Part shown: piece by piece, positions 18,074 to 18,946 of the stretch | How positions within the stretch are numbered: position 1 is the first letter of the stretch | Layout of the letters: every line of letters starts with the position of its first letter | From: a virus | Virus record (IMG/VR): IMGVR_UViG_3300028242_000098 | Strand: one strand, 5' to 3' | DNA: 35,301 nucleotides | Notes under the pieces: model-generated | Database searches by the model: none | Told to the model about the DNA's origin: nothing | Seen by the model: only the letters and a program-made list of their open reading frames with translations | Position numbers and translations under genes: made by a program

Positions 18074-18946
18074 TTATTGGTAAACGTAAAGCTCTCCGTC
18101 AACAAGGTATGCATCACCAGTGGTTCCGGTTGGATGTGCTGCAATTAAATCAGCATAACTTGCATAACTTCCTTTGATGATGGTACTGTATCCTTGAGGG
18201 CCTTGCGGTCCGGTTTCACCAGTGTCACCTTTAGCACCGGTATCCCCAGTATCTCCCTTATCTCCAGTGTCACCTTTGTCCCCGGTTCTTCCGGTATCAC
18301 CTTTTGCTCCGGTTTCACCAGTAGCACCAGTGTCCCCTTTATCACCGGTTAATCCTTGTGGTCCAGTTTCTCCAGTATCTCCTTTCTCACCTGTAAGACC
18401 TGTTGCACCTGTGGCACCAGTGTCACCTTTGGCACCTGTGTCTCCTTTAAGACCTGTGGCACCAGACATGTCTGTTACGAAGCTGAATTCACTTGCACCT
18501 TTGAGGTATAACTTTGCGTTATCTGGATCATCTACTGTTGATTGGATTGCTACAAACATTCCTTCAGGAACATTACTTGCATCAGCTTCCATTGCAGAAA
18601 CTGATTCGTAGGTTTTATAGATTGAGAATGGATCTCCTGTTTCACCGGTTGCACCGGTTGCTCCAGTATCACCTTTTAAACCTTGCTCACCAGTGTCTCC
18701 TTTTGCACCGGTTGCGCCGGTTGCTCCAGTGTCACCTTTTTCACCAGTTGCTCCGGTAGCACCTGTTGCACCAACATCACCGGTATCGCCTTTAGCACCA
18801 GTGTCACCTTTTTCACCAGTTAAGCCTGCTAATTGTTCTGGTGTGAATTTGTCGTAGGTGAATGCGTCTCCAGTGTCACCCTTTTCTCCTTTCTCACCAG
18901 TATCTCCTTTTGGTCCTTTGATTACACCAACACTTTTCCATGCCAT
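18074..18946 (-). CDS. Long collagen-like fibre protein
   Basis: Two long uninterrupted Gly-X-Y tracts rich in GDT/GAT/GET, separated by a globular insert; N-terminal [11 protein letters not shown]; ends in a truncated module ...GELYVYQ. Confidence 0.9.

Follow-up and report, generated by a model that had tools for sequence, protein, structure and literature searches.

A 290-residue collagen-like protein with complementary half-modules at its two ends, the candidate middle segment of an ordered virion fibre in a Methanobrevibacter virus

The 290-aa protein described here, the "extender", begins with the last β-strand of a small module and ends with the same module lacking that strand, and we favour, with moderate confidence, the reading that it is the single-copy middle segment of an ordered, trimeric, collagen-like virion fibre built of three or more parts. 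In the proposed assembly, the 209-aa protein encoded upstream would anchor the fibre to the virion, probably by binding the capsid as decoration proteins or head-fibre bases do, and would end in a small trimer-forming module without its last β-strand. The first 11 residues of the 290-aa protein (the "plug") would complete that half-module (the "socket"), and the protein would then extend as a collagen triple helix of ~50 nm, with an intact module midway and a second incomplete module at its end. The 107-aa protein encoded downstream would complete this second module with its N-terminal residues and would carry distal proteins in turn. The plug and socket of the 209/290 joint are referred to as class A, and those of the 290/107 joint as class B.

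Fibre genes of a Methanobacteriales virus

The analysed stretch of 35,301 nucleotides (IMG/VR record IMGVR_UViG_3300028242_000098, hereafter the window) belongs to a tailed virus or provirus with the host genus Methanobrevibacter (rumen methanogens), and rumen Methanobrevibacter MAGs carry near-identical loci, among them a closely matching provirus in contigs L017 and L018. The window DNA is 82% identical to that of "Caudoviricetes sp. vir323", for which the listed host is Methanobacteriales, and the pseudomurein endoisopeptidase and terminase genes (Table 1) confirmed that it is a virus of Methanobacteriales, archaea whose cell wall consists of pseudomurein. Of the three paralogues of the anchor domain found in the 209-aa protein, the bare one is encoded immediately upstream of both capsid genes.

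Table 1. Coordinates of the features in the window
Feature	Position	Strand	Description
Large terminase	6475-7893	-	Agrees with a Methanobacteriales virus
Pseudomurein endoisopeptidase	9436-10245	-	With pseudomurein-binding repeat; agrees with a Methanobacteriales virus
HK97-type capsid genes	11102-12981	-	Two adjacent paralogues, so annotated in vir323
Anchor-domain paralogues	12996-13496, 18977-19606, 21147-21914	-	Three; one bare, one with collagen and socket, one with C-terminal extension
MntA/HepT-type toxin-antitoxin pair	14107-14725	-	Nucleotidyltransferase (PF18765/PF01909) and HepT-like protein (PF01934)
311-aa collagen-like protein	14789..15724	-	Two intact modules, Phage_tail_C tip, plug-like N-terminus ..EWIEIGPVRG
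107-aa distal adaptor	17663..17986	-	Class B plug MAWINVGNLKG followed by ETG; small beta domain; C-terminal helix
Terminator-like hairpin	18015..18055	-	17 bp, then T7; in the 87-nt spacer between the 290-aa and 107-aa genes
290-aa middle segment (extender)	18074..18946	-	Plug and socket; from ORF, Pfam scan and AF2 model
Class B socket	18077..18190	-	Residues 253-290; strand, helix, two strands; ends ...GELYVYQ; without last strand
Intact divergent module copy	18464..18634	-	Residues 105-161 (central module); AF2 pLDDT 57-71
Class A plug	18914..18946	-	Residues 1-11, followed by PKG; from alignment to intact modules
Junction A spacer	18947..18976	-	30 nt, from the 209-aa stop to the 290-aa ATG; RBS AGAGGTG; a further in-frame stop
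209-aa proximal protein	18977..19606	-	~155-aa anchor domain, short collagen stub, class A socket
Class A socket	~18980-19093	-	Half-module ending ...GELFVWHND

Several other elements of the region were recorded. The anchor paralogue with a C-terminal extension (~90 aa) has in that extension a ..FVWEDN.. stretch, like the last strands of the socket, and a 65-aa ORF at 20889-21086 (minus strand) contains G-H-W-F-Y-W-N-G-T-K-Y-V-D-S-G, similar to the hairpin-plus-strand motif of the fibre modules, without collagen. The MntA/HepT-type pair is flanked by the last fibre gene on one side and by the decoration-like gene on the other.

Complementary half-modules at the gene junctions

Alignment with intact modules, two copies of which are present in the 311-aa protein and 55 in related loci, showed that residues 1-11 of the 290-aa protein correspond to the last strand of the module, W-x-N-V-G-N-I-K-G, and that residues 253-290 correspond to the ~45-aa module up to its third strand, where the stop codon follows. 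Collagen sequence lies between them, as Pfam PF01391 matched at E=5.9e-27 (cut-off 27.2 bits), and 59 Gly-X-Y triplets were counted in three tracts of 6, 22, and 31, with mostly Thr or Lys at the Y position; if triple-helical, these tracts would span ~51 nm. The preliminary description of this DNA had reported a plug strand at the start, a socket half-module at the end and long Gly-X-Y tracts between them, and the module alignment and triplet count bore this out. The central module, which that description did not mention, has homologous intact modules in long bacterial collagen-like fibre proteins, and it probably nucleates trimer formation for both long collagen tracts. In the AF2 model of the whole protein, the class B socket had pLDDT values of 65-80 and a strand was placed at residues 3-9 (pLDDT ~58), the overall confidence of this model and that of the relative P0121 being low (mean pLDDT 41-42).

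The two halves of the upstream joint are found as one domain in other proteins. In P0121 (384 aa, 61% identical to the anchor), an intact module stands exactly where the 209-aa protein ends, and in both P0121 and P0122 the anchor continues unbroken through the module into collagen and a tip domain, so that unsplit orthologues exist for this junction. Further, in P0124-type proteins the anchor is joined to the C-terminal part of the 107-aa protein in one polypeptide. Therefore, the split genes are pieces of one fibre protein found elsewhere. For the socket of the 290-aa protein itself, no unsplit orthologue was found in a search whose matches were dominated by generic collagen proteins. In the AF2 model of P0121, which was poor as a whole, the module was folded as strand-helix-strand-strand-strand with pLDDT 63-80, and at both junctions the gene break falls in the loop between the third and the last strand. 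One protein thus ends, and the next begins, with the matching portions of a domain that other proteins have unbroken. The joints would have originated by fission of a single fibre gene within this loop.

The arrangement was then followed through ~85 related loci from genome and metagenome scans. A plug gene came next, 19-36 nt away, after 54 of 55 anchor sockets, and these 54 genes comprised 45 complete plug-plus-socket genes, five plug-plus-tip fusions, and four cut by contig ends. After extender sockets, the 107-aa-type plug gene came next in 44 of 47 cases, the other three being at contig ends, so the 107-aa protein is the conserved partner encoded directly after the socket of the 290-aa protein. 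Because the plug-plus-socket architecture recurs with sequence divergence in 45 complete copies from other Methanobrevibacter virus loci, it is not a chance arrangement.

Consistently, both halves are under purifying selection. At pS ~0.45, the anchor and extender sockets gave dN/dS values of 0.04 and 0.09, respectively, and the plugs ~0.2, compared with 0.10 for the anchor core and 0.13 for the central module; that is, the sockets are as constrained as, or more than, the anchor core. No indels were found in the class B socket, as indels were confined to the collagen tracts.

The split also recurs at greater distance. A second anchor clade (59% identity; L031, L032, and L075) is split in the same loop, with a stop, one codon and the ATG in frame. 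This break reads ..WEE-stop-x-MTW.., with a 3-nt spacer; the joint may here be recent or reduced to a minimum, with the second gene translated by termination-reinitiation. Moreover, a pattern scan of viral contigs recovered the three-part chain in unrelated bacterial phages of 40-72% GC, where a protein ending in GDxYxDxxxGxxYxLx-stop is followed by MxWxxxGNIKG, collagen and the same hairpin ending, and then by a further MxW...G gene; the IMG/VR contigs concerned (L103, L106, L117, L124, L130, L131, L136, L139, and L003), with GC of 0.40-0.70, have one middle gene each.

Docking of the 209-, 290-, and 107-aa proteins by strand complementation is most likely, as read from the sequences, with each protein supplying the β-strand that is missing from the end domain of the preceding one. 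The preliminary proposal that the two ends of the 290-aa protein are complementary docking elements therefore stands in its first part, as domain halves for which docking is the best reading, while the variable-length self-extension attached to it was not supported for the reasons given below.

Fibre order, copy number and alternative readings

Two junction classes were distinguished by the residues that follow the plug strand, which are PKG in 53 of 54 class A plugs (SKG in the remaining one) and D/E-TG in all 44 class B plugs. The class A pattern includes the five natural deletion variants in which the plug is fused to a tip domain, and among the loci no class B plug was found after an anchor socket. 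The class A and class B sockets share 21 of 38 residues, and each is nearly invariant. Since two distinct conserved joint classes accompany an extender gene that is always single, one 290-aa trimer per fibre, serving as a spacer of defined length, is most probable. In the loci compared, the anchors are 83-99% identical, and because the loci are such close relatives the two classes may reflect common descent and not selection for specificity. Nor would a strict 1:1:1 fibre lead one to expect that a terminator-like element is conserved between the extender gene and its cap gene.

The best-surviving alternative is the one originally proposed, namely that the plug of the 290-aa protein enters its own socket to give head-to-tail fibres of variable length until a plug-only cap protein is added, with the terminator keeping the caps scarce. 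Both ends are indeed on one protein, and the two plug classes have strand residues in common, as the extender of one lineage has WINVGTIKG and a class B plug has WVNVGTIKG, one position apart. In addition, the intact modules nearest to the extender socket (67-69% identity) carry in cis the strands W-x-S-A-G-S-I-K-G or ...L-K-G-P-K-G, which resemble extender plugs, one of them being followed by PKG; intact modules thus exist that pair B-like socket halves with A-like strands. Because the strand residues overlap and intact modules combine similar halves, self-fit of the 290-aa protein is possible. The chains of the bacterial phages likewise show near-identical successive joints. In the 55 intact modules, the third strand covaries with the last, LYVW occurring with NVGN, and YYYW, YFW, or YYW with AGS. 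Deriving plug-socket specificity from this covariation was tried and rejected, as both window junctions fell in one group and could not be separated.

Against self-polymerisation, every locus has one extender gene, none of the related loci examined having two, and a length of exactly 290 aa is kept in 31 of 45 complete copies despite the tendency of collagen tracts to gain and lose residues. The junction classes are distinct in all loci, and we know of no precedent for uncontrolled cytoplasmic polymerisation in virion fibres. In the AF2 monomer, the residue ranges of a structural search imply that the N-terminal strand packs on the central module and not on the C-terminal socket; this placement is probably an artefact of a shallow alignment and speaks neither for nor against self-fit. 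With a single gene per locus, a length held at 290 aa and two plug classes, head-to-tail growth with a length set by expression ratio, as had been suggested, is unlikely. A related form, in which the 290-aa plug would be accepted by the sockets of the anchor and of the 290-aa protein alike and the length distribution would follow the extender-to-cap ratio as tuned by the hairpin and T run, is in our judgement rather unlikely too.

The terminator-like element itself is real. Folding gave -25.6 kcal/mol (z=-5.7) for a hairpin whose stem occupies 18018-18055, with the T7 run reaching 18015 on the coding strand. A simple terminator scanner did not list it, because the stem takes up part of the T run. 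In its homologues (spacers of L002-L100), the lower stem GGAAGT.C / G.ACTTCC and the T7-9 run are constant, while the upper stem varies with compensatory changes. The hairpin was kept in 30 of 37 distinct spacers, a conservation that agrees with the self-polymerisation reading and with the earlier sighting of a hairpin and T run between the extender and cap genes. However, it is gone in one subclade, where the spacers are 11-26 nt long and the same proteins are kept, with an extender of 290 aa or 245 aa, which speaks against a role in keeping the caps scarce. Further, the T run merges into a TATA-like TTTATAAA, and TTTATAAA or TTTTTAAA occurs in the homologues ~23 nt before the next ATG; this may be an archaeal TATA box, and therefore the cap genes may have their own promoter.

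The two proteins that had been proposed as caps fared differently. The 107-aa protein is well placed for this role by its conserved position after the extender socket. For the 311-aa protein the role is doubtful, because homologues keep the ..EWIxIG.. N-terminus in ~10 related viruses in which the anchor is fused to the fibre, and no socket-ending gene was found in the 7-kb flanks fetched for these viruses. In one anchor-fused virus (L010, 12041-12706), the homologue is frameshifted in the collagen tract (221 aa); the gene is intact in ~10 others.

The same N-termini bear on a second alternative, according to which the half-modules are not docked, the three proteins are separate or otherwise attached, and the ends are folding or trimerisation caps left from the gene break. 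The plug-like N-terminus of the 311-aa homologues in viruses without sockets agrees with it, as does the occurrence of MxWxxVGNIKG-type N-termini where the upstream protein has a complete motif (L004). However, domain scans found no other attachment domain in the 290-aa protein, both halves are among the most constrained parts, the fused relatives have them joined as a single domain, and adjacency and order are kept in the two anchor clades and in the bacterial phages. We therefore hold undocked ends to be very improbable.

Fusion of the parts by stop-codon read-through or similar recoding was rejected as hardly credible. In its favour, both window ATGs share the frame of the preceding ORF, at 33 nt and 90 nt counted from the start of the stop codon, the second-clade break has a single stop and one codon before the ATG, and the length of the class A spacer is divisible by 3 in 33 of 54 cases. 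However, every window spacer contains two or three in-frame stops together with a strong RBS of its own, one holds the terminator-like hairpin, and the frame is not conserved, 21 of the 54 class A spacers and 24 of the 44 class B spacers being out of frame.

Structural likeness and comparison with known fibres

The reading of an ordered fibre was further compared with known folds and assemblies. No Pfam family was found for the module or the anchor, and PDB sequence searches with the intact module and the bare anchor paralogue returned nothing meaningful. By structure, the intact module matched the N-terminal domain of Geobacillus virus E2 (GVE2) ORF18 (7chu) with a VIA Z of 5.7, and the class B socket matched residues 3-45 of the same protein with an rmsd of 1.6 A, 30% identity and Z 2.8 (VIA). 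The trimerisation domains of collagen XVIII and XV matched the intact module with VIA Z 4.6 (51/57 residues aligned) and 4.2, respectively, and the multiplexin trimerisation domain matched the central module with VIA Z 3.1, all below the level of a trustworthy fold match; small neck domains of tailspikes were also among the weak structural matches of the intact module. Like the module as modelled, the domains of multiplexins XV/XVIII (3n3f and 9bnb) and of GVE2 ORF18 consist of four strands and one helix and stand beside collagen or start a trimeric spike; to our knowledge none of them is split between two proteins, unlike the module here.

For the anchor, the top matches included at least ten capsid decoration or head-fibre proteins (Z 3.3-5.7), with pLDDT 70-80 in the model in residues 100-140 only. 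The phi29 gp8.5 N base and the capsid decoration proteins 6qyy, 6qvk, 8phq, and 9gay were matched at VIA Z 5.0-5.7 from this low-confidence model. The anchor domain of the 209-aa protein probably folds like capsid decoration proteins or the base of a head fibre. From the weak structural matches and the bare paralogue beside the capsid genes, we tentatively read the fibre as probably attached to the capsid, a location for which the structural matches reach only Z 5-6, and, also tentatively, the module as a trimerisation knot. The phi29 head fibre differs in being a single polypeptide with a coiled-coil-like stalk, while the proposed fibre is segmented and collagen-like, and the match is weak.

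The nearest mechanistic analogue is found in chaperone-usher pili (Pap, Fim, and Caf1), in which the incomplete domain of one subunit is completed by the N-terminal strand of the next. Pilus subunits that have both a strand and a groove are either single-copy adaptors (PapK and PapF) or self-polymerising rods (PapA and PapE), and the same question, adaptor or rod, is posed by the 290-aa protein. Chaperone-usher pilins are Ig-like, whereas the module here is ~45 aa long and consists of a strand, a helix and three strands. The fibre here would be trimeric and collagen-like, so three strands would dock at once, and its assembly would take place in the archaeal cytoplasm as part of a virion. Among the ten fibre-region proteins scanned, no match to pilin, chaperone, or usher families was found. 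Because fold, oligomer state, compartment, and helper proteins all differ, the 290-aa protein stands outside the chaperone-usher pilin family.

Among virion fibres, the T4 long tail fibre (gp34-gp35-gp36-gp37) consists of separately encoded trimeric proteins joined end to end in a fixed order, each used once. The proposed fibre would be similarly ordered and multi-protein, but probably capsid-borne. As far as we know, no single domain is divided across the T4 joints, and a collagen-like helix is absent from the T4 fibre. A solved composite domain is known from two adhesion proteins of a Lactococcus phage, as a β-hairpin of Tuc2009 BppU completes the β-sheet of BppA (PMC4742702). That joint is Ig/titin-like and belongs to a baseplate tripod, with no collagen, no linear chain, and no protein carrying both halves (PMC4742702). 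In the literature searched, no description of the present fibre or joint was found, and the MSTV1 paper makes no mention of collagen or fibres.

If the joints work as proposed, the long collagen-like fibres of archaeal and bacterial viruses are put together from exchangeable parts, with a split trimerisation knot as the link, and protein engineering would gain a small connector of natural origin for collagen-like rods. With both ends on one chain, the 290-aa protein is a test case of whether such joints are ordered, as in pilus adaptors, or polymerising, as in pilus rods. Should it self-polymerise, its assembly would be analogous to that of a pilus rod but encoded by a virus and independent of chaperones, and might be general in the many bacterial phages with the same chain. 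Split joints would further explain recombinational swapping of the distal host-recognising parts with the anchor left untouched. Swaps are visible in the loci, where the anchor is fused to the tip, the anchor is fused to the adaptor, or the plug is fused to the tip. In the last kind (L051, L058, L062, L063, and L065), the extender plug and first collagen stretch are fused to a 311-aa-type tip in a protein of ~182 aa, so that the fibre consists of the anchor and one short piece, and the fusion looks like recombination between collagen repeats.
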